UHGV virus genome: UHGV-1836508
Reading direction: 5' to 3' (one strand)
Source: a virus
Length of the DNA stretch: 41,013 nt
Shown here: positions 3,616 through 39,690 of the stretch, one piece after another
How the letters are laid out: each line of letters starts with the position of its first letter
Numbering within the stretch: position 1 is the first letter of the stretch
Notes under the pieces: model-generated
Database searches by the model: none
What the model was told of the DNA's origin: nothing
The model's input: the letters and a program-made list of their open reading frames with translations, nothing else
Position numbers and translations under genes: made by a program

Positions 3616-3708
3616 TTATCCTTTGCTCCTAGATATGGTGGGCGTTCCATGCCCACCATTAAGTTAGTACCTACCTATTTTTACAGAAATGATTATTTTT
3701 TTCCACAA

Positions 3709-20093: not shown

Positions 20094-20124
20094 AACATAG
20101 ATAATTACTTATCTACTTCACTGA

Positions 20125-21934: not shown

Positions 21935-23509
21935 TCACTCGTTCTCTTGAGTAGATGAGTCCCCATTCCCTCGGGGTTGATCTTGCCCGCTTTCTTGGGC
22001 TGCACCACGATCATAAGTAAGTACTGACTTATTTTCAAGGGTATTTAGATCATTTTTTGGAGGAAAATTCAAGAGATCTTTATCAAATTCCTTTTTCATC
22101 GCCTCAGTAATGTTCGGGAAAATCTTCTCAATAAGCATTTCCATCTGGTGACGACGTACAGAGTCCGGTGCCTGAAGTAATGACAGTTTCTCGGCAACAG
22201 AAAATTCATCAGTAAGGCCACGAATATCGAAACTTTCTGGATATGCAATTAAAGAGTGGTCTTCGTCCAGATCTACCCCCATCCATTTCGCAACCAGTAG
22301 CATGATTTGGCGTTCAGCCCTTTCCAGACGCTCTGCTTTTGTGACAAGCAAGCTATTTACACGCTGGAAGTCATACATTTTTGCGGCACCAGATGAATTA
22401 TCGATTCCCTGTGCGTTGTCCTGCTTCGTTCGCTCACCAGCTACACCAACTGAATGGTAGATTTCGTTAATCACCGTCTTAATCGTAGTGATGATCATCT
22501 GAGCTTGTTTCGGGTCTGGTGACAGATAAAACGGCTGGTTTCCACCTTCAGAATCGTAGGTGAAGACTCGCTTTGTGCCCATTTCAAGCACTTTAGTGTG
22601 GTTTTCATCACCAGGTAAAAGCGACTGTACCGGTATAGCCAACTGGCTAAATGTCTGATCCTGAATAATGGCATCAAGGTTTGACAGATAGTTTGCAACC
22701 GCACGATCAAGATAAGCGATATCATCGATCAACGATGGGCTGAAATACGGTGATTCACTTTCTCCAATACAATCAACAGGAAACACAGGAACTACGCCGA
22801 GATTATGCTCACCGCTATCCTCTAAAATTACTTTTGCCTGACGGCGACCTGCTCCACCAGCGCCCTTCTTCACTTCCTCACGGAACAGATACCACTCGTT
22901 TTGTGTCCACAGACGATAACGTTGGTATTCCTGACCTGTAGAAGTAAAAGGATCTGCGTCATCACGAGCGACTTCCACAATTAACGCCCACAACATATTC
23001 CCGTCGTCGTCCCATGCCACATCCAGCATTTGCTGAGGTGAAATCCAGTAGGCGTAGGCGCGAGCATCTTTCTTTTTCTCGTCAGCTACTGACTCAACAT
23101 CACCACTCATCGTGCTATCGACAACAACCCATATGCGACCGTAAATAGACGACTGCAAATCAATAGCGGCCATAAATGAGTCAATAGAGGCATTCTGGCG
23201 AGTCGCACGTTTCCAGAAATTGCGGATCTGCTCTGGTGCCTCTTCGATATTTCTATGAATGTCTTCTTTAAAGAGATATTTGTTGATGAGGTTTACCACC
23301 TCACGAGTGTGGTTGAAGCGATAAGCACGTTCAACTCGCTCCTTAAACTCCTGATCTCCCTCTTTAAAGTAACGAAAGATATTGTCTGTAAACCAACCAC
23401 GCCCGCCAGCGTAAGTGCTGGCGAGGAAGTCCCAATGTTCTTTTTTCTTTTCGTATTCCGGGTGGCGTCGCGCCACCAGATCCTTAATTTGTTTGTCGTT
23501 CAATTCCAT
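21935..23509 (-). CDS. portal protein
   Basis: 524 aa directly downstream of the terminase large subunit; size and position. Confidence 0.8.
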   Translation of the reverse strand: MELNDKQIKDLVARRHPEYEKKKEHWDFLASTYAGGRGWFTDNIFRYFKEGDQEFKERVERAYRFNHTREVVNLINKYLFKEDIHRNIEEAPEQIRNFWKRATRQNASIDSFMAAIDLQSSIYGRIWVVVDSTMSGDVESVADEKKKDARAYAYWISPQQMLDVAWDDDGNMLWALIVEVARDDADPFTSTGQEYQRYRLWTQNEWYLFREEVKKGAGGAGRRQAKVILEDSGEHNLGVVPVFPVDCIGESESPYFSPSLIDDIAYLDRAVANYLSNLDAIIQDQTFSQLAIPVQSLLPGDENHTKVLEMGTKRVFTYDSEGGNQPFYLSPDPKQAQMIITTIKTVINEIYHSVGVAGERTKQDNAQGIDNSSGAAKMYDFQRVNSLLVTKAERLERAERQIMLLVAKWMGVDLDEDHSLIAYPESFDIRGLTDEFSVAEKLSLLQAPDSVRRHQMEMLIEKIFPNITEAMKKEFDKDLLNFPPKNDLNTLENKSVLTYDRGAAQESGQDQPRGNGDSSTQENE

Positions 23510-23535
23510 TTGAATAACCTTAGATAATTACTTAC

Positions 23536-24792
23536 CTATCGAGAACCACCAAGAATAACACGGTTTTTGACTGGATACCTACGATGTACTGGATAGCCCA
23601 ATGCGTCTGCACTATGCTCAATGCCACCTGTCTTATCCATATCTCGTGTTCCAGGCTTGTAGATGACTTTTTCCAGTGAATCAATCAAATGCTTGCACTT
23701 CGGATCGATATACAGCCGGATATCTCCAGATGCGGTCATCAGCATTCGGTTAACAGCATTAACACGATCCGCAATTGGCGGGTGCTTTTTCGAATAATCG
23801 ACACGTAAGAATCCCTTCTCTTTGAATATGTCGACGTCAGACTCCCCGCGAGCATGTTGGCGATAAGCACCTGCCGGATCTGGAAATACCGTTATCTGTG
23901 ATTTCCAGCGCCAGAAGCGTCTCTCAAGCTCATCACAAACCTCTGCCGTGTTAGAGGAAAAGAGCACCAATTCATCAATTGCCCATAGCTCACCATTTGG
24001 CTGAGGTTGCAAAATTACTGAAGACATCGGGTCAATGTTGAAGTCCTGCCCTACCCATATAGGCAACCGAGGGTTGAACTGAAGCGGTTTTACATGCACG
24101 TTACGATCGAACGGGTAGTAAACGCGCCCGGACATGTTCTCAAAGCTCGCCAGGTACTCCTGAGCGAACGATTTCGGGTCCATATCGTTCTTAGCAGCTT
24201 CAATTTCCGCCGTAGGTACAAACGGAGAATCGGCAGTTACAAACTGCCAGCTCTTCCACTGTCCCTTTCTTTGCAGCTCTACGTTCTGGCCTATAGTCCA
24301 CAGTTTGTGAAATTCCGAGAAGCCTTTTGGCGTACCAATGATCAGTGCACCGCCGCGTGTCGATGAAAGAGTAGGTCGTAACACCTTGTACCAGGTGTCA
24401 GCCTTCATATCCTGAAATTCATCAAGCACTACAAAATGCAACGCTACGCCGCGCAGAGTGTCAGGCTTATCAGCACCTTTGAGGGCGATCTCCGAACCGT
24501 TCTTCAACACGATTGTCATCGTGGTGTCGTTCTTTTTCCTAACCCACTTACGAGGCAGAACTTCCTGTAGATCGTCCCACAAAATCTGGCGAGCCATCTG
24601 GTAAGTAGGAGCGACATACCAGACTCTTTGCTTTTTTTCCTTTGCCGCCGCACGAATAATAGTGGAGATCGACAACCGGGATTTTCCCCAGCGTCGACCA
24701 GCACAAACAACTTTAAATCGATGCGGAGACTGGAAGACTTTCATCTGTCCAGAATGCAGTTGCACAAGACTGAGCGAGGACGGGATTGCCAT
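23536..24792 (-). CDS. terminase large subunit
   Basis: Walker A …VVCAGRRWGKSRLS… and Walker B VVLDEFQDM in the N-terminal ATPase half; position before portal. Confidence 0.85.
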   Translation of the reverse strand: MAIPSSLSLVQLHSGQMKVFQSPHRFKVVCAGRRWGKSRLSISTIIRAAAKEKKQRVWYVAPTYQMARQILWDDLQEVLPRKWVRKKNDTTMTIVLKNGSEIALKGADKPDTLRGVALHFVVLDEFQDMKADTWYKVLRPTLSSTRGGALIIGTPKGFSEFHKLWTIGQNVELQRKGQWKSWQFVTADSPFVPTAEIEAAKNDMDPKSFAQEYLASFENMSGRVYYPFDRNVHVKPLQFNPRLPIWVGQDFNIDPMSSVILQPQPNGELWAIDELVLFSSNTAEVCDELERRFWRWKSQITVFPDPAGAYRQHARGESDVDIFKEKGFLRVDYSKKHPPIADRVNAVNRMLMTASGDIRLYIDPKCKHLIDSLEKVIYKPGTRDMDKTGGIEHSADALGYPVHRRYPVKNRVILGGSR

Positions 24793-25424: not shown

Positions 25425-25443
25425 AGATCCCTCTAAAACACAC

Positions 25444-25463
25444 AGAGCGCGTCCATGCGCTCT
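25444..25463 (-). other. leader hairpin immediately upstream of the terminase small subunit RBS
   Basis: AGAGCGC-gtccat-GCGCTCT, 15-20 nt before the SD. Confidence 0.5.
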
Positions 25464-25507
25464 AAAACAACTTGTTTACTGCATCTGCTAACCAACTTGT
25501 TTTCTGG
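25464..25507 (-). promoter_or_regulatory. two copies of the shared palindromic leader element (AAACAAGTTGTTT type) upstream of the terminase genes
   Basis: Plus strand aaaacaacttgttta (25464-25478) and accaacttgttttctgg (25491-25507); same element as in the early-gene leaders. Confidence 0.5.
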
Positions 25508-25619: not shown

Positions 25620-25886
25620 TTACATCACCAGTAACTTCGCTTTGGCTCGACCTAAAGTGGTTAACCCAAGAGTCCGGCGGTGATAGCGATTGTCACTGCG
25701 TTGGCGCGTATGCCCTTTCTCCACCAGCCCCTTTTTTATCAGAGCGCGAATTGAGAACTGGATACTTTGCTTGGTTGTCTTGTACGGCAAAACTTCAAGC
25801 AATTCGTCCAGGTCAAGTAGATGACCTCGCTCATAACCGAGATTGAGCGTTTTGATGATGTCCTTTTGTTTATCGGTTAACGTCAT
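25620..25886 (-). CDS. small winged-helix-like DNA-binding protein (putative regulator)
   Basis: 88 aa, basic C-terminus, helix-turn-wing pattern (…QSIQFSIRALIKKGLVEKGHTRQRSDNRYHRRTLGLT…); SD AAGGA 7 nt before the ATG; last gene of the ParB operon. Confidence 0.45.
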   Translation of the reverse strand: MTLTDKQKDIIKTLNLGYERGHLLDLDELLEVLPYKTTKQSIQFSIRALIKKGLVEKGHTRQRSDNRYHRRTLGLTTLGRAKAKLLVM

Positions 25887-28811: not shown

Positions 28812-28875
28812 TAAGTAATCACTTACTTATTATAATAGCCAAATAACATACAAAAGGCACTAAGGAAAGAGGTTT

Positions 28876-32635: not shown

Positions 32636-33157
32636 ATGGTTAAAGACATCACCTACGGCATACCGGCTGAAGTCTGGCCGCGAGACTACGAACATGCTGA
32701 AAACATACTTATGTTCTGGCGGAAGAACAACATTCCTGTAAGAGTCACGCTTGAAGACGGTCAGGTGTTTTGCATGTACGTTCAGGGGACAATGCCTTCC
32801 CGCAATAAGCTAGATTTATGCCCGCTTCCATATGATAAAGAAAATCGTATAAGACTCCCACTTGAGCGCATTAGCACAATTGAATCAGGTGTAATCGATG
32901 GCATTGCTCGCGAGTTCAAAGGTAGGCTAACAATACATCCAGACTATGTTGACAATCAGCCATCACGCCGTGACTTTTTTGCGATATGTCGCAAGGCTTA
33001 TCAAAACGACCAATCTATAAGGGTCTACATGACAGACGGTCGTGAAATAGAAGGGGTGTCAAGAGGCGTTGATGCTTGCCAGGTCACTCTTAAATTAGAA
33101 GACGGCAGAAAAATACTTGTTTTCTTCGATTGGGTTGAACGAATCCTTCCATTTTAA
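32636..33157 (+). CDS. hypothetical protein with two tandem Rof/YaeO-like repeats (possible Rho modulator)
   Basis: Internal duplication …VRVTLEDGQVFCMYVQG…RIRLPLERISTIE / …QVTLKLEDGRKILVFFDWVERI resembling the LTLELKDGE…RLDKITSF pattern of Rof; TATAAT at 32602-32607 upstream. Confidence 0.35.
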   Translation: MVKDITYGIPAEVWPRDYEHAENILMFWRKNNIPVRVTLEDGQVFCMYVQGTMPSRNKLDLCPLPYDKENRIRLPLERISTIESGVIDGIAREFKGRLTIHPDYVDNQPSRRDFFAICRKAYQNDQSIRVYMTDGREIEGVSRGVDACQVTLKLEDGRKILVFFDWVERILPF

Positions 33158-35487: not shown

Positions 35488-35508
35488 GATTATTTCCTTA
35501 TCGTAAAT

Positions 35509-35562
35509 AACAAATTGTTTTCTTGTTGGTGTTAATTATCGTTGTACGAATAAGGCGTCAAA
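35509..35562 (-). promoter_or_regulatory. promoter (TTGACG - 15 bp - GATAAT) plus conserved leader element for gene A
   Basis: Minus strand reads TTGACGccttattcgtacaacGATAATtaACACCAACAAGAAAACAATTTGTT, then SD and ATG. Confidence 0.55.
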
Positions 35563-35662
35563 GTGGAAAGTTGCGGTAGCCGGACGAGAACAGGTGGGTT
35601 TGTCGGTTGCCTGGAGGTAAGAGGTTGGTGTTTTTAGCCTGCGGGAAACAGGATGGTCATTT

Positions 35663-35686
35663 AAGGCCACCAGCATTGGTGGCCTT
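35663..35686 (-). terminator. hairpin (terminator or processing site) after gene B; contains a Chi octamer
   Basis: AAGGCCACCA-gcat-TGGTGGCCTT; near-identical copy at 36134-36157. Confidence 0.45.
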
Positions 35687-35691
35687 AGTCT

Positions 35692-35973
35692 TTAGTGGAG
35701 CAGACCGATGTCGATGGTATCCCCTGAATCATCCACACGGATCATCAGCATGGCGAAGGCGTTTAGTGGATAGCTTGCGTGCCATTCAGGGAAGCGGTCA
35801 TCTCGCATGAAGTCGGCAATGTCGTAAACGCATCCCTCAAAGTGGAAGAATCGCGTGCTTACCTGCTCGTCATAATCCACATGATCCATTTCTTGCTGTT
35901 CTGTTTCCGGCAAGTCCAGCCATGATTCAAGGAATACATTTTGTGCTTTAGGGGTAATGGTGAAATCAGTCAT
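35692..35973 (-). CDS. small strongly acidic early-cassette protein B (93 aa; DNA-mimic-like composition)
   Basis: ATG at 35973 with SD GAGGA (the longer track ORF has no SD). About 22 Asp/Glu against about 5 Lys/Arg. Shares a D(I/A)ADFM(R/D) segment with gene F. Confidence 0.55.
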   Translation of the reverse strand: MTDFTITPKAQNVFLESWLDLPETEQQEMDHVDYDEQVSTRFFHFEGCVYDIADFMRDDRFPEWHASYPLNAFAMLMIRVDDSGDTIDIGLLH

Positions 35974-35992
35974 GAGCATATCCTCACTGCGT

Positions 35993-36024
35993 AAACATGT
36001 TGTTTTCTTGTTGGTGTAATTATC
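35993..36024 (-). promoter_or_regulatory. -10 GATAAT plus conserved leader element for gene B
   Basis: Minus strand GCGATAATtACACCAACAAGAAAACAACATGTTTAC. Confidence 0.5.
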
Positions 36025-36133
36025 GCAGTGTAGATAAGGCATAAAAGAAGTTAATACAGGCTGAATACACAAGAAAGGTTCTGGAAGTTGATAGCCAGGT
36101 TTCAAACTAACCTTCGGTTATTAAAAGTCATTT

Positions 36134-36157
36134 AAGACCACCAATGCTGGTGGCCTT
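36134..36157 (-). terminator. hairpin (terminator or processing site), inverted copy of the 35663 element; contains a Chi octamer
   Basis: AAGACCACCA-atgc-TGGTGGCCTT, followed on the minus strand by a U-rich tract. Confidence 0.45.
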
Positions 36158-36308
36158 AATAATTATCGCCCGATTACGCTAAGGATCTTTTCCTCAACTG
36201 ATTTGTTGTTGCGACTAAACTGCCTTGCGTATCTGATGACAGAAGAGGCGTTTTGCTTTCTGACCATCTCGGCTCTTTCCTTCAGGCGTTTCTTGAAATC
36301 GCCCATAT

Positions 36309-36683
36309 TTACCACCAGGCGCAGAAGGTCAGTCTGTTATTGTGAAAGTCGTGGTTCTTAATCAGATCTTCCACAAGCTCTTTCAACTCCCCCACATCAT
36401 GCCAGTAACCTTCATCGTACTCCTGACTGCCGAAGAAAAAACCTTCCCGGGTAGGCAAGTACTCTTCGCAATTACTTTCGTTTATGTGCATCAAATGAGC
36501 CTTCAGAAAACAAATGTCATTCATCGTTAATTCTAAAAGCTCACAATTTTCGACTTCACCTACGTTGCGCTCCATCCACCCAACGAGCGCATTGAACTTA
36601 CGGAAGTAAGCAACCCGCTTTCTGGATGCCTCGTTATTCAGATCGTTTTTAGGCTGTGTCTCGATATAGATATCAAGTCCCAT
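36309..36683 (-). CDS. hypothetical acidic early-cassette protein C (124 aa)
   Basis: ATG at 36683 with SD AAGGAA; track start 36725 is GTG without SD. Confidence 0.55.
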   Translation of the reverse strand: MGLDIYIETQPKNDLNNEASRKRVAYFRKFNALVGWMERNVGEVENCELLELTMNDICFLKAHLMHINESNCEEYLPTREGFFFGSQEYDEGYWHDVGELKELVEDLIKNHDFHNNRLTFCAWW

Positions 36684-36737
36684 GATGGTTTCCTTATTAA
36701 GTTGCTTCAGTGAAATCATTTTCACAAATCAGATAAG

Positions 36738-36760
36738 GCAGAAAACAAATTGTTATCGGG
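36738..36760 (-). promoter_or_regulatory. conserved leader/operator element upstream of gene C, in inverted orientation
   Basis: Plus strand gcagaaaacaaattgttatcggg. Confidence 0.4.
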
Positions 36761-36768
36761 CTTAATAA

Positions 36769-36791
36769 AATGGCGCGGTTTACGCGCCATT
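36769..36791 (-). terminator. intrinsic terminator after gene D
   Basis: AATGGCGCG-gttta-CGCGCCATT then TTATT on the minus strand. Confidence 0.65.
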
Positions 36792-36800
36792 TAAAGAGGA

Positions 36801-37196
36801 TTAAGCGAATACGCTTTCAGGGATTAAGGTGTCGGCAGGAATGCCAGAGGTAATGCGCAGGCCGTACTGACCAATCCAGGTAGTGTTGGTATTCAGGTTG
36901 GAGGCGAATACGGTGTTAACCATATTCATCATGGTTTCAAACACCTCTTCATCAACCTGGCGGAAGTAGTTCTCGATTTTCAGCAGCAGCGGGTCAGTTG
37001 CATCGAGAATGGACTGGTATTGAGTCGCGTACTCGCCGTCGGAGGCATCACCTTTACGCACGATCGTACTGGCCTGGACTTCGGCACCAGTTTCGGTGTT
37101 GTACGTAACAACGGTGATTTTTGCCACATTCTTACCTTCGGCGGTTTCAGAGGCATAGTAAACATCAACTGTCAGTTTTTCGCGTTTAACGGTCAT
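36801..37196 (-). CDS. hypothetical 131-aa early-cassette protein D
   Basis: ATG at 37196 with SD GGAGAG; own sigma70-like promoter. Confidence 0.55.
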   Translation of the reverse strand: MTVKREKLTVDVYYASETAEGKNVAKITVVTYNTETGAEVQASTIVRKGDASDGEYATQYQSILDATDPLLLKIENYFRQVDEEVFETMMNMVNTVFASNLNTNTTWIGQYGLRITSGIPADTLIPESVFA

Positions 37197-37228
37197 TTCA
37201 CTCTCCGTAGTGTTTTGGTTATTTTTAT

Positions 37229-37257
37229 ATTCTATGATCGTAGGTATGTACTTACAA
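37229..37257 (-). promoter_or_regulatory. sigma70-type promoter for gene D (TTGTAA - 17 bp - TAGAAT)
   Basis: Hexamers read on minus strand; -35 lies within a GTAAGTAC motif. Confidence 0.5.
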
Positions 37258-37266
37258 TACAAAAAA

Positions 37267-37289
37267 AGCCCCGTAAGGATGGCGGGGCT
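37267..37289 (-). terminator. intrinsic terminator after gene E
   Basis: Minus strand AGCCCCGCC-atccttac-GGGGCT followed by TTTTTTT. Confidence 0.8.
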
Positions 37290-37323
37290 GTCGTACTGTC
37301 GACTAATTACCACTTGCACATTA

Positions 37324-37635
37324 TCAGGCTATTGCCATCACTGATGCTCTCTGAATTTCTTGCTGGGCCACGCGGTTAACTTCCATCAAAGCCAGTTCGA
37401 GCTGATGTTCCGGCCACATTCTTTGAAATGCCATCCAGCCTTTTCCACGCTGGCGACGAACATTCATTACATAACGAGTAAAGGTGTTTTTATCGAAAGA
37501 CACCGCTGTTTCACGGAACAGACGAATAGAGGTTCCATTGGCAACGATGTCCAGCAAAGTTAATTGAGCAACCAGCGCAGGCTTCTCTTTTCTCTTCTGG
37601 TCTTTGTCCAGACCAAGAACCAATGATTTTTTCAT
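37324..37635 (-). CDS. small basic early-cassette protein E (103 aa; possible nucleic-acid-binding regulator)
   Basis: ATG at 37635 with SD GGAG; Lys/Arg-rich. Confidence 0.5.
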   Translation of the reverse strand: MKKSLVLGLDKDQKRKEKPALVAQLTLLDIVANGTSIRLFRETAVSFDKNTFTRYVMNVRRQRGKGWMAFQRMWPEHQLELALMEVNRVAQQEIQRASVMAIA

Positions 37636-37646
37636 CACAACTCCGT

Positions 37647-37681
37647 AAACAACTTGTTTTCTCAATGGCGTAAATAATACC
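37647..37681 (-). promoter_or_regulatory. -10-like TATTAT plus conserved leader element for gene E
   Basis: Minus strand GGTATTATttacgccattGAGAAAACAAGTTGTTTAC. Confidence 0.45.
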
Positions 37682-37789
37682 AGTAAGAAAACGGCTACAA
37701 AGCATATTGATCAGGCGCATGAGCGATATGCAGGTTCTTCCCTGCGGCTACAGATTAAGTTAAGCCAGCATTGCTGGCTTTGGTTGGGA

Positions 37790-38119
37790 TTACGCGATTA
37801 CCTCAAGAAACTCCTGAACGTCCCAATGCTGGACGAGGTGAAGATAGACCTTAGAAATCACGTCATTTTCGCTATCGCATGTGAAGTAGTACTTCTGGCT
37901 GCGGTTGTATGTGTCCACACAAAATTCGCTCATATCCATAAAGTCAGCATCTTCACCCATGTCGCAAATCATCAAAGCAGGTGCGTCATCACGAGTCATC
38001 AGCTCAAGCACCCACCGCGAATTGATCAGAGTGGAAGACCAACCTTCTAACTCATAAAACTGATCAAACTCTTTTTGAGTTAATTTCTTGATTTGGTTGA
38101 TGTCGATATTTGCAAACAT
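37790..38119 (-). CDS. small strongly acidic early-cassette protein F (109 aa; paralogue-like to B)
   Basis: ATG at 38119 with SD AAGGA; net charge about -15; EDADFMDMSEF segment resembles gene B. Confidence 0.55.
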   Translation of the reverse strand: MFANIDINQIKKLTQKEFDQFYELEGWSSTLINSRWVLELMTRDDAPALMICDMGEDADFMDMSEFCVDTYNRSQKYYFTCDSENDVISKVYLHLVQHWDVQEFLEVIA

Positions 38120-38132
38120 AAAGCAATCCTTA

Positions 38133-38165
38133 AACAACATGTTTTCTTGATGGTGTTATTATCGC
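38133..38165 (-). promoter_or_regulatory. -10 GATAAT plus conserved leader element for gene F
   Basis: Minus strand GCGATAATAACACCATCAAGAAAACATGTTGTTTAAGG. Confidence 0.5.
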
Positions 38166-38479
38166 AATAACGCACAAGCGAAAAAGGATTTTATTCCGGT
38201 GAATGTGGTTTTGGCAGTGAGTTTTCAGGTTCAGTACCGAGAACACTTTTTACATTATTCTGATTTAGTGGCCGAAGGTGGCTGGTGGGCAGAATAATCC
38301 TCTCCCCGAAAACCTACTGAAATCGATTGTGACCCGTTGGCTGTCTGGCACAATTACGCTGTAGCTGGGCATTCAGAGGGAATCCAGCGGTAAGTAAGTT
38401 CGCCTGCACGTGAGCGTCTCTCTTCTTCCCGCACATTACAGGTGGGTAGCCGCAACTCTCCCTCTCGCTATACCGGTAC

Positions 38480-38662
38480 GCCGCCGTTCCTGAACCGGCA
38501 TCGAGCCTTTTCCCGAAATCCACACAGGCAACTCGACCGTTTCCCTGAAAATCCCCAGCCGTTCCCCGAAGGCAATCCAGCCGTTTCTGTAGCGGGATGC
38601 AGCCTTTTCCCTGCGGCGACGCTCCCGTTCCTGAAAATGGACATAGCCTTTTCCCTGGATGG
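38480..38662. repeat. iteron array 2: eight direct repeats of (A)GCCGTTTCCCTGAAAA-type units at 20-23 bp spacing
   Basis: Copies start at about 38484, 38504, 38537, 38557, 38578, 38601, 38624 and 38645; the region has only low-complexity ORFs. Confidence 0.8.
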
Positions 38663-38699
38663 CCCGAAGGCTGACCGAAGGGGTGGAAATAGGCGTTAC

Positions 38700-39690
38700 G
38701 GGGGACGAAAATTATGGCTTGAATTTATACGAAGAAAGTAGCGATACCCCTCCTTCCCTTCCCACTTATACCTCCCACGAATTTTCTCTCTTATGTGGGC
38801 ATAAACCTTCCCTCTGATAACGCTCTATACGGCGAGTATTCCTTTGGGTGAAATGGGTGGTTTGTTCTTTCTACCGGCATATGTGGTTTCGTTCTTCTTG
38901 AGGTGGTTCTTCTCTGTGTTTTCGTCTGGGTTGTTCTCGTCGTTTTGGTGACTGTTCTTCTCCGTGTATGGAGTAATGGCAGGTGGGCGATTGCTTTCGT
39001 TATTGTGTTTGAGTTGTTTGTCTGGAGTGCGTGAAGGGCTTTTGTAGTTATTCGTGTATTGGGTAATGGCGTTTCCCGTGATTGTTATGTTTCGTGTCTT
39101 TTGGGATTGAGAGAAACCTTGCGGTTACAGGCTTCGTTGGGGTTTCAGTGATTCTGGTGTTTCTTCGCTGTTTGGGTAATGGCGTGTCGTGGGTATCGCG
39201 CGTATGGAAGTTTCGAATTGCCTGTGAAAGTTAGGTTGGTTGTCCGGTAGCCTGGGAAGAAGAGGTGGGTCTTTTCGGTAGCCTGCCATAAAGAGGTTGG
39301 TTGTTTTTGGTAATGGCATATGTGTTATTTAGTTGTTTTGTTATACCTGAAAATAAGTTGTTTATATGGTTGTGTAACGCAACGGGAGCGATTTTGAGCG
39401 TGTGTTTTTGTTGGTAGTGTGTTGAGTCGTCTGTGGTGAAATTTGGACGCTGTGGCGCTATCTGCTGCGTGGGATTACGGGTATAAGAAGTGATGTGTGA
39501 AAACGTCAATTTTTTAGACCAAATCGGGTGAAAGCGTTGACATTTCGTTGATCTGTTGTTCAGTTGTTTTCTTATTGGTATAAACAACTATAACCTATTG
39601 ATATTTAAGGATGTGATTGCAGGTATAGAATGGGGGTAGTGGCGATCAACGGATTCTTATAGAAAAGAATCAAATTGTGACCGCCATTAT
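38700..39690. other. ~1-kb GT-rich (plus strand) non-coding tract with dispersed GGTAATGGC repeats
   Basis: No plus-strand ORF of 60 aa or more; minus-strand ORFs are low-complexity with TTG start; GGTAATGGC-like motif at about 38965, 39063, 39175 and 39309. Confidence 0.6.

Follow-up and report, generated by a model that had tools for sequence, protein, structure and literature searches.

Why should one short, partly palindromic block recur in front of a series of small genes in a virus genome and again in the leader of its terminase small subunit gene (terS)? The 41,013-nucleotide (nt) stretch analyzed here, UHGV virus genome UHGV-1836508 (hereafter, at its full length, the window), raises this question at positions 35,509 to 38,165, where a first-pass annotation had noticed the block at the small early genes called A, B, C, E, and F and had proposed for it either one dimeric regulator or a common RNA element. 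Our analysis points to a DNA operator for a small dimeric regulator, forming part of a dispersed regulon encoded by the phage itself, a reading that we consider probable and hold with modest confidence. Of the two proposals, a dimeric regulator acting on DNA thus fits the data better than a common RNA element.

Judged by its sequence, the window derives from an SSU5-like phage-plasmid, since its segment 35300-38400 matches Escherichia phage Cyrano (OV696614, 108,379 bp) with 98.8% identity from end to end. In Escherichia coli LF82, Cyrano resides as the SSU5-like plasmid prophage pLF82 (PMC9928086). Its whole genome, taken as three pieces (L001 to L003), served as an annotated stand-in for the full element of the window, and the published Cyrano RNA-seq (S1 table of PMC9928086) provided all lysogen expression values. 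Phage-plasmids of the SSU5 type (pHCM2 and pLF82/Cyrano, with many more in Klebsiella, Enterobacter, and Salmonella) are common in clinical Enterobacterales and may carry resistance genes, and the control of their lysogeny, replication, and accessory genes is almost unexplored. A full-text literature search on SSU5/pHCM2 regulation and on the motif sequence found no account of the element; the regulon is new for the SSU5-type group, although the kind of system is already known.

Sequence and symmetry of the repeated element

The element is a 17-base near-palindrome, AAGAAAACAA-N-TTGTTT. Allowing at most one mismatch, its core AAACAANTTGTTT occurs eight times in the window against 0.24 expected, a count reached by none of 100 shuffled sequences, and the longer form ACACCAWCAAGAAAACA is matched six times against 0.33 expected. 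The latter is found without mismatch at 35516-35532, 36001-36017, and 38140-38156, with two mismatches at 39565-39581, and with three at 37655-37671. On the minus strand, the block ACACCA(A/T)CAAGAAAACA that the first-pass annotation had described lies at 38156-38140 (gene A), 37671-37655 (gene B, three mismatches), 36017-36001 (gene E), and 35532-35516 (gene F), in each case between a GATAAT or TATTAT hexamer and the Shine-Dalgarno sequence (SD), as had been claimed. The inverted copy announced ahead of gene C and the two copies in the terS leader are likewise present (Table 1). The motif search also brought out a site at 39351-39363, a half-site at 39565-39581, and a spread over the entire genome, all of which had been missed.

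Within the core, AAACAA-N-TTGTTT, C and G are mirrored around a central base that can be G, T, C, or A, giving a twofold symmetry with an unconstrained center. One arm (AGAAAACAA) is always longer and better conserved, and the opposite arm is looser; because the three-base AGA extension on one arm has no mirror image, the site is a pseudo-palindrome. The near-palindrome first described therefore holds for the symmetry of the core, and the site as a whole is not purely palindromic, one of its arms always being extended. It had also been stated that the versions at B and F are reverse complements of each other, which is wrong; this relationship is exact for the cores of A (AAACATGTTGTTT) and E (AAACAACATGTTT).

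Promoter context and spacing of paired copies

The same order of parts emerged when 16 upstream regions were aligned and when a census was taken of 52 distinct promoter sequences in the window and its relatives: a weak −35 (TTTnnn), GCCTT, an extended −10 (TGnGATAAT or TATTAT), a spacer, the motif, the SD, and the start codon. The spacer is A/C-rich (ACACCAAC), measures 9 to 10 nt, and is followed by AAGAAAACAA-N-TTGTTTA and then by 10 to 32 nt that contain the SD and lead to the start codon. From the −10 to the motif, the register is free of gaps across all 16 aligned promoters, and the 9- to 10-nt spacer is found in 37 of the 52 distinct promoters. Of the whole promoter region, the AGAAAACAA arm shows the highest conservation in the census, above the −10 and the SD, a ranking in which the information content of the motif is inflated because the 52 promoters were chosen by motif presence. 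A sigma-70 scan leaves the motif promoters uncalled owing to their weak −35. With a transcription start assumed about 7 nt past the −10, the site would span about +4 to +20, with its center near +14; the earlier placement at +1 to +30 had also been derived from the −10 hexamers.

At gene C and at the Cyrano genes CY93 and CY101, an inverted upstream copy (AAACAANTTGTTTTCT) overlaps the −35, past the hairpin of the gene before it. We surveyed site pairs up to 120 bp apart in the window, Cyrano, SSU5, two Klebsiella phages, the Nissabacter and Enterobacter elements, and 80 IMG/VR loci. Measured center to center, 54 distinct sequences have their sites 51 bp apart and 25 have them 25 bp apart, with only three stray values. 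The 51-bp pairs bracket the core promoter, and the 25-bp pairs are those of the terS leader and of a noncoding, repeat-rich region. In the pairs of upstream (U-type) and downstream (D-type) sites that we examined, the extended arms point at the promoter from both sides, so that the whole region is mirror-symmetric. Copies are hence found in both orientations and also at positions outside the predicted transcripts. A site centered near +14, whether single or paired with one at about −38, corresponds to the geometry of a repressor.

Distribution over the Cyrano genome and conservation in relatives

The Cyrano genome holds 18 sites (core with at most one mismatch), distributed as 4, 3, and 11 over the three pieces against about 0.2 to 0.3 expected in each. 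Each of the 18 immediately precedes a gene of the lytic-direction strand, namely, terS (two sites), parA, the DNA helicase gene, cobT, CY58, nrdB, CY85, CY87, CY93, CY101 (two sites), CY103, and the cassettes A, B, C, E, and F. None of the opposite-strand, lysogeny-expressed genes of Cyrano is preceded by a site. Three sites, at 95801, 97940, and 94605 (the last in the doubtful CY103 open reading frame [ORF]), fall nominally within annotated ORFs, whose starts have apparently been placed too far upstream. The element is genome-wide and not particular to the cassette and packaging genes. Joint control of the early cassette and the packaging genes, as first suggested, is therefore borne out as regards a shared element that includes terS and is too narrow in its scope, which extends to replication, nucleotide-metabolism, and partition genes.

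The same motif and layout are found in Salmonella phage SSU5, in the Klebsiella phages pJN2-26 and vB_KpnS_p4727, in Nissabacter and Enterobacter plasmid prophages, in one E. coli chromosomal remnant, and in IMG/VR relatives down to 70% UvsW identity. Moreover, the motif is invariant even in those IMG/VR relatives whose FljA-like protein, one of the two candidate binders treated below, is only 34 to 39% identical. Being identical in all relatives compared, the motif offers no variation that could be set against that of a binder. Co-occurrence over 80 UvsW-anchored loci does not discriminate between candidates, because every locus with a sufficiently long flank contains the motif together with the FljA-like, ParB-like, and winged-helix genes. 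Across viral contigs, motif density in SSU5-like loci is about twice that in unrelated loci, the latter having been selected for one match, and the promoter context of the motif is found only in SSU5-like loci among the contigs compared. The view of a single cis-element common to many transcription units, the terS leader included, is thus strongly supported by its enrichment, its locked position relative to the −10, and its conservation across the SSU5 group.

Table 1. Motif sites, candidate binders, and associated features (window coordinates unless stated otherwise)
Feature	Position	Strand	Core position	Details
Gene A promoter module	38132..38163	-	38132	−10 GATAAT 38163-38158; ACACCATC; D-type site AAGAAAACATGTTGTTT 38148-38132; ATG 38119
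Gene B promoter module	37647..37679	-	37647	TGgTATTAT, −10 37679-37674; D-type site GAGAAAACAAGTTGTTT 37663-37647, perfect core
Gene C promoter	36718..36755	-	36743 (inverted)	U-type (inverted, upstream) site TAACAATTTGTTTTCT 36755-36740, overlapping the −35 region; then GCCTTATCT and TGtGAAAAT (−10 36723-36718); no downstream copy
Gene E promoter module	35993..36024	-	35993	TGcGATAAT, −10 36024-36019; D-type site AAGAAAACAACATGTTT 36009-35993
Gene F promoter module	35508..35540	-	35508	GATAAT 35540-35535; D-type site AAGAAAACAATTTGTTA 35524-35508
terS leader, two sites 25 bp apart center to center	25462..25506	-	25465 (25465-25477), 25490 (25490-25502)	CAGAAAACAAGTTGGTT 25506-25490; AAACAAGTTGTTTTAG 25477-25462
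Terminator-like hairpin	25435..25463	-		AGAGCGC-ATGGAC-GCGCTCT and T-run, past the double site and ahead of the terS start codon (25424)
Site in repeat-rich region	39351..39363	-	39351	AAACAACTTATTT; A/C-rich noncoding region; conserved in relatives, where it is one of a 25-bp pair
Half-site	39565..39581	-		ATACCAATAAGAAAACA(AC); extended arm retained, right arm lost
Weak site	33104..33126	-		AAGAAAACAAGTATTTTTCTGCC; two core mismatches, both arms extended
88-amino-acid winged-helix (MarR/PadR-like) protein, candidate binder	25620..25886	-		Directly upstream of the terS double site
173-amino-acid FljA-family protein (PF03614), candidate RNA-level binder	32636..33157	+		Two tandem Sm/Hfq-like domains
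Second palindrome, TAGGTAAG-N2-CTTACCTA	3660-3677, 20098-20115, 22014-22031, 23521-23538, 28812-28829			5 in the window vs 0.10 expected
Second palindrome in Cyrano	22451, 26660, 42606, 67886, 77439, 79654, 84623			Cyrano coordinates

Candidate regulators

Pfam and PHROGs searches gave no function for genes A to F or for other small candidate regulators, and two proteins stand out by other features. The 88-amino-acid (aa) protein encoded beside terS is modeled as a winged helix-turn-helix (predicted local distance difference test [pLDDT] score, 85.5), with MarR, MepR, PadR, and small archaeal winged-helix proteins as its nearest solved structures (template modeling scores of 0.7 to 0.79). It is 75 to 100% identical across the group, even where its neighbors drop to 65%, its putative recognition helix is invariant, and its gene is expressed in LF82 above its upstream operon neighbors. 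Because the invariant helix matches an invariant operator and the gene adjoins the terS double site, we prefer this protein, which on such sequence grounds would most likely be the binder of the motif.

The second candidate, of 173 aa, gives a full-length match to PF03614 ("repressor of phase-1 flagellin," FljA; E = 1e-80) and is modeled (pLDDT, 84.6) as two tandem helix-plus-five-strand domains without a helix-turn-helix. FljA is reported to stop translation of fliC mRNA and is described as its posttranscriptional/translational repressor (PMC2652032; bioRxiv 10.1101/2025.10.27.684867). The FljA-like gene is core in all SSU5-like elements examined, those of Klebsiella included, and is expressed in the lysogen (log2 of about 7 to 8). 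It lies 2.4 kb from the motif-bearing region and has no motif site in its own leader, and its product is the most variable of the local core proteins, with mosaic alleles and 35 to 99% identity against 65 to 100% for the backbone neighbors. The weak site of Table 1 falls within the last 50 nt of its coding sequence, at the 3′ end of the gene, and the minus-strand sequence after that site resembles the GCC...−10 layout, a possible antisense promoter.

The CI-like helix-turn-helix repressor CYRAN_45 was also considered as the binder and rejected, since its own divergent control region lacks the AAACAA motif and carries another palindrome, a perfect GGTAAGTGCTTACC (GGTAAG-N2-CTTACC), which belongs to the second dispersed family listed in Table 1.

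Proposed mode of action and alternative explanations

We propose a model in which the operator, of the form AGAAAACAA-N-TTGTTT, is embedded in sigma-70-type promoters whose −35 is weak and whose −10 is extended (TGnGATAAT). A dimeric, phage-encoded protein would occupy the copy centered near +14 and, where it is present, also the inverted copy near −38, which lies over the −35, 51 bp off and on about the same face of the DNA. Seated on one or both flanks of the core promoter, the protein would occlude or trap RNA polymerase, and the outcome would be repression of about 16 transcription units comprising the small accessory cassettes, the helicase gene, nrdB, cobT, parA, and the terS leader. Such repression could serve either plasmid-prophage maintenance or early lytic shut-off, a timing that we infer, as we do the start positions, the repressive effect, and the identity of the binder. 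A DNA operator is favored because C and G are mirrored around a free center, because copies occur in both orientations and also where they are not transcribed, and because the motif is rigidly coupled to the −10 and paired at 25 or 51 bp. Moreover, motif-bearing genes remain near background in the Cyrano lysogen (5 to 25 normalized counts versus a median of 9.8) despite their good −10 elements, and in macrophages they show a modest and uneven rise. One invariant operator at about 18 promoters with a fixed geometry constitutes a testable regulon with two concrete regulator candidates.

Nevertheless, several observations weigh against this model. The extension and better conservation of one arm, together with lone surviving half-sites, would be unusual for the operator of a simple homodimer, and tandem dimers at the 25-bp pairs would sit on different faces of the helix, because 25 bp is about 2.4 helical turns. 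It is adjacency and conservation that connect the candidate 88-aa protein with the site, and a conserved protein of the RNA-binding FljA family is encoded nearby, and the sole characterized member of that family has its site between promoter and SD, a site once mistaken for an operator. The motif-bearing genes respond nonuniformly under macrophage (SOS) conditions. Finally, parA carries the motif at the standard position and yet reaches 50 to 89 in the lysogen versus the median of 9.8, being the only motif-bearing unit clearly expressed there; its leader (L002, 29259-29306) contains a second −10-like GATAAT downstream of the motif, which may account for this expression.

Because a FljA-family, Sm-like protein is encoded nearby, control at the RNA level remains a serious rival for the leader copies, although we judge it unlikely overall. 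The leader copy (AAGAAAACAA-N-UUGUUUA) would then be bound single-stranded by the FljA-like protein, which would block the 30S subunit and destabilize the mRNAs, as FljA does on the fliC 5′ untranslated region (UTR). A full-length PF03614 protein that is core to the group and expressed in the lysogen is indeed encoded together with this putative target, and at least 13 of the 18 sites are sense-oriented in short leaders beside the SD. The A-rich and U-rich arms resemble ligands of the distal and proximal faces of Hfq, a likeness that would suit RNA binding, and the expression of parA would agree if its possible second promoter yielded an mRNA without the motif. Moreover, Klebsiella pneumoniae is nonflagellated, and the FljA-like protein there therefore needs a target other than flagellin. 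The Salmonella fliC leader (AGCCCAATAACATCAAGTTGTAATTGATAAGGAAAAGATC) has CAUCAAG in common with the gene A leader and CAAGUUGU with the B-type core, the distance from the start codon being similar (about 20 to 27 nt before the AUG); the 8-mer in common with the B-type core is CAAGTTGT. Taken as a 13-mer, however, the resemblance is weak (four mismatches, estimated P of about 0.08 within a 40-nt leader), and the E. coli K-12 fliC leader has another spacing (TCAACGACTTGCAAT). Action on RNA also leaves unexplained the inverted copies above the −35, which 54 distinct promoters carry outside the predicted mRNA, at a distance of exactly 51 bp. Dyad symmetry would be meaningless for a single-stranded RNA without a hairpin, and the isolated motif hairpin amounts to only −0.7 kcal/mol, with z-scores of 0.15 to 0.77 for four leaders. 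The binder itself would be the most variable neighbor of an invariant motif and would lack a site in its own leader. A structured cis-regulatory RNA was rejected: none of the sequences folded (four leaders, the isolated motif, and the terS leader) adopted a stable structure, apart from pairing between the two terS copies, the leaders matched no Rfam family at the gathering threshold, and there were no compensatory changes, the motif being invariant. We also entertained a dual-level signal, a more speculative and somewhat less probable view than the RNA operator itself, in which the RNA form would be the ancestral target of the FljA family, the tandem Sm/Hfq-like protein would repress or anneal some 16 leaders carrying a self-complementary 13-mer, and the Salmonella fljA-fliC switch would be a domesticated offshoot whose fliC leader mimics the phage leader. 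If so, FljA-like proteins would form a new class of phage-encoded, Hfq-like global posttranscriptional regulators; in any case, a nonflagellar role of the family becomes testable.

That no dedicated regulator is involved seems very unlikely to us. The block would then be a promoter-plus-leader module, made of an extended −10 and an A-rich initial transcribed or translation-enhancing sequence, that is copied around together with terminator hairpins and kept similar by recombination, with gene shuffling as its main consequence. The independent promoter, SD, ORF, and hairpin of each of the small genes A to F would be expected from this, as would the roughly 30 bases identical among the A, E, and F modules and the insertion-deletion breakpoints at hairpins and within the motif of gene A described below. 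Yet the core also stands in promoters with little flanking similarity (those of the helicase gene, nrdB, parA, cobT, and terS), is conserved above the −10 and the SD, and is unchanged in distant genomes, and copy-and-paste ancestry alone does not predict precisely spaced inverted pairs. A factor of the host, conserved in Enterobacterales, appears slightly more improbable again; it could be Hfq on A- and U-rich RNA, given the likeness of the AAGAAAACAA and UUGUUU halves to Hfq ligands, or a nucleoid or transcription factor on DNA, and the invariance of the motif across elements of E. coli, Salmonella, Klebsiella, Enterobacter, and Nissabacter would agree with it. To our knowledge, however, no host-factor consensus fits the motif (IHF, LexA, CRP, the LacI/PurR family, KdgR, SlyA, Fur, and the sigma-28 promoter were compared), and the doubled density and exclusive promoter context in SSU5-like loci also argue against a host factor.

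Comparison with known systems

The DNA operator that we favor finds a close counterpart in the MarR sites I and II of E. coli marO, which are also pseudo-palindromes for a small dimeric winged-helix protein, one lying over the −35/−10 and the second between start site and SD, with repression by occlusion; a MarR/PadR-like fold is moreover predicted here for the adjacent 88-aa protein. The present system differs in that a single operator type, with strict 51- and 25-bp spacings, recurs at about 18 promoters on a replicon of 108 kb, and the 88-aa protein, a candidate binder only, lacks the MarR dimerization helices (88 aa versus about 140 aa). In its reach, the regulon recalls that of P1 C1, which likewise belongs to a plasmid prophage and directly controls separate small operons through one operator type at many scattered promoters. 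The C1 operator is an asymmetric 17-mer, ATTGCTCTAATAAATTT, to which the motif is unrelated in sequence; no C1 homologue was seen, although no search aimed at one was made, and the present genome seems to hold two dispersed palindrome families.

With the FljA operator in the fliC 5′ UTR, the present site shares a dyad character, a position between promoter and SD, and the core CAAGUUGU at a similar distance from the AUG, and the present element encodes a PF03614 protein. The FljA operator serves one target, whereas here there are many, with copies that are inverted and outside transcripts; a mechanism of the FljA type would have all sites in the sense orientation within the transcript near the SD, and the conserved inverted upstream sites lie outside the predicted transcripts. 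The fliC site is near +36 of a 62-nt leader, compared with about +3 to +20 as placed here, and the overall sequence match is weak. KorB/KorA of IncP RK2 and the SopB sites of N15 likewise have a 13-bp palindrome that recurs in one replicon at numerous promoters, in some cases near −39, and ParB-family proteins are encoded in the present element too. However, the motif has no sequence relationship to OB or parS sites, the lysogen does not express the two ParB-like genes, and nothing observed ties them to the motif.

Cassette boundaries and neighboring features

Every small gene is self-contained, with a promoter-operator, SD, ORF, and hairpin of its own, a layout of the accessory genes that the operator module accounts for while marking their recombination points. 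Relative to phage CMS-2020a, where it is missing, the gene E cassette lies between near-identical 28-nt hairpins (35661-35688 and 36132-36159), and a second insertion-deletion breaks within the motif of gene A (38140-38147). The breakpoints of cassette gain and loss thus fall at the repeated promoter and hairpin modules, which act as boundaries in the manner of promoter-early stem-loops (PeSLs), the mobile cassettes of T4-type phages. Both have repeated stem-loop and early-type promoter modules that flank small ORFs of unknown function and coincide with insertion-deletion breakpoints. We know of no PeSLs with a separate palindromic operator, and the conserved core stands here, unlike in PeSLs, also at housekeeping phage genes.

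In the terS leader, the terminator-like hairpin hints at control of the packaging operon by attenuation or antitermination, and in RNA one motif copy might pair with the other. The 1.2-kb noncoding region at 38400-39600, A/C-rich on the minus strand, contains motif copies and several families of direct repeats, one of about 37 nt that is present four times at 38478-38655 and others sharing the core TGGGTAATGGCG at 38958-39188. Its appearance is that of an iteron or origin region, and CYRAN_103/104, the ORFs annotated there in relatives, may not be genes. At the cobT promoter (Cyrano L003, 3050-3095), an inverted repeat CTGCGCGAA...TTCGCGCAG adjoins the −10; relatives (loci L074, L076, L083, and L109) have CTGTACGAACAG...CTGTTCGTACAG instead, with both arms changed and the pairing or dyad kept.

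The second dispersed palindrome (Table 1) is mostly intergenic and precedes late or other genes (tail fiber, holin, portal, nrdA, dam, and the ParB/UvsW divergent region); it may be the operator set of the CYRAN_45 repressor or a late-promoter element. By far the highest expression in the Cyrano lysogen, about 7,000 against the background of 9.8, belongs to CYRAN_43 (L003, 268-822), which encodes a 184-aa protein beside the integrase and the repressor.

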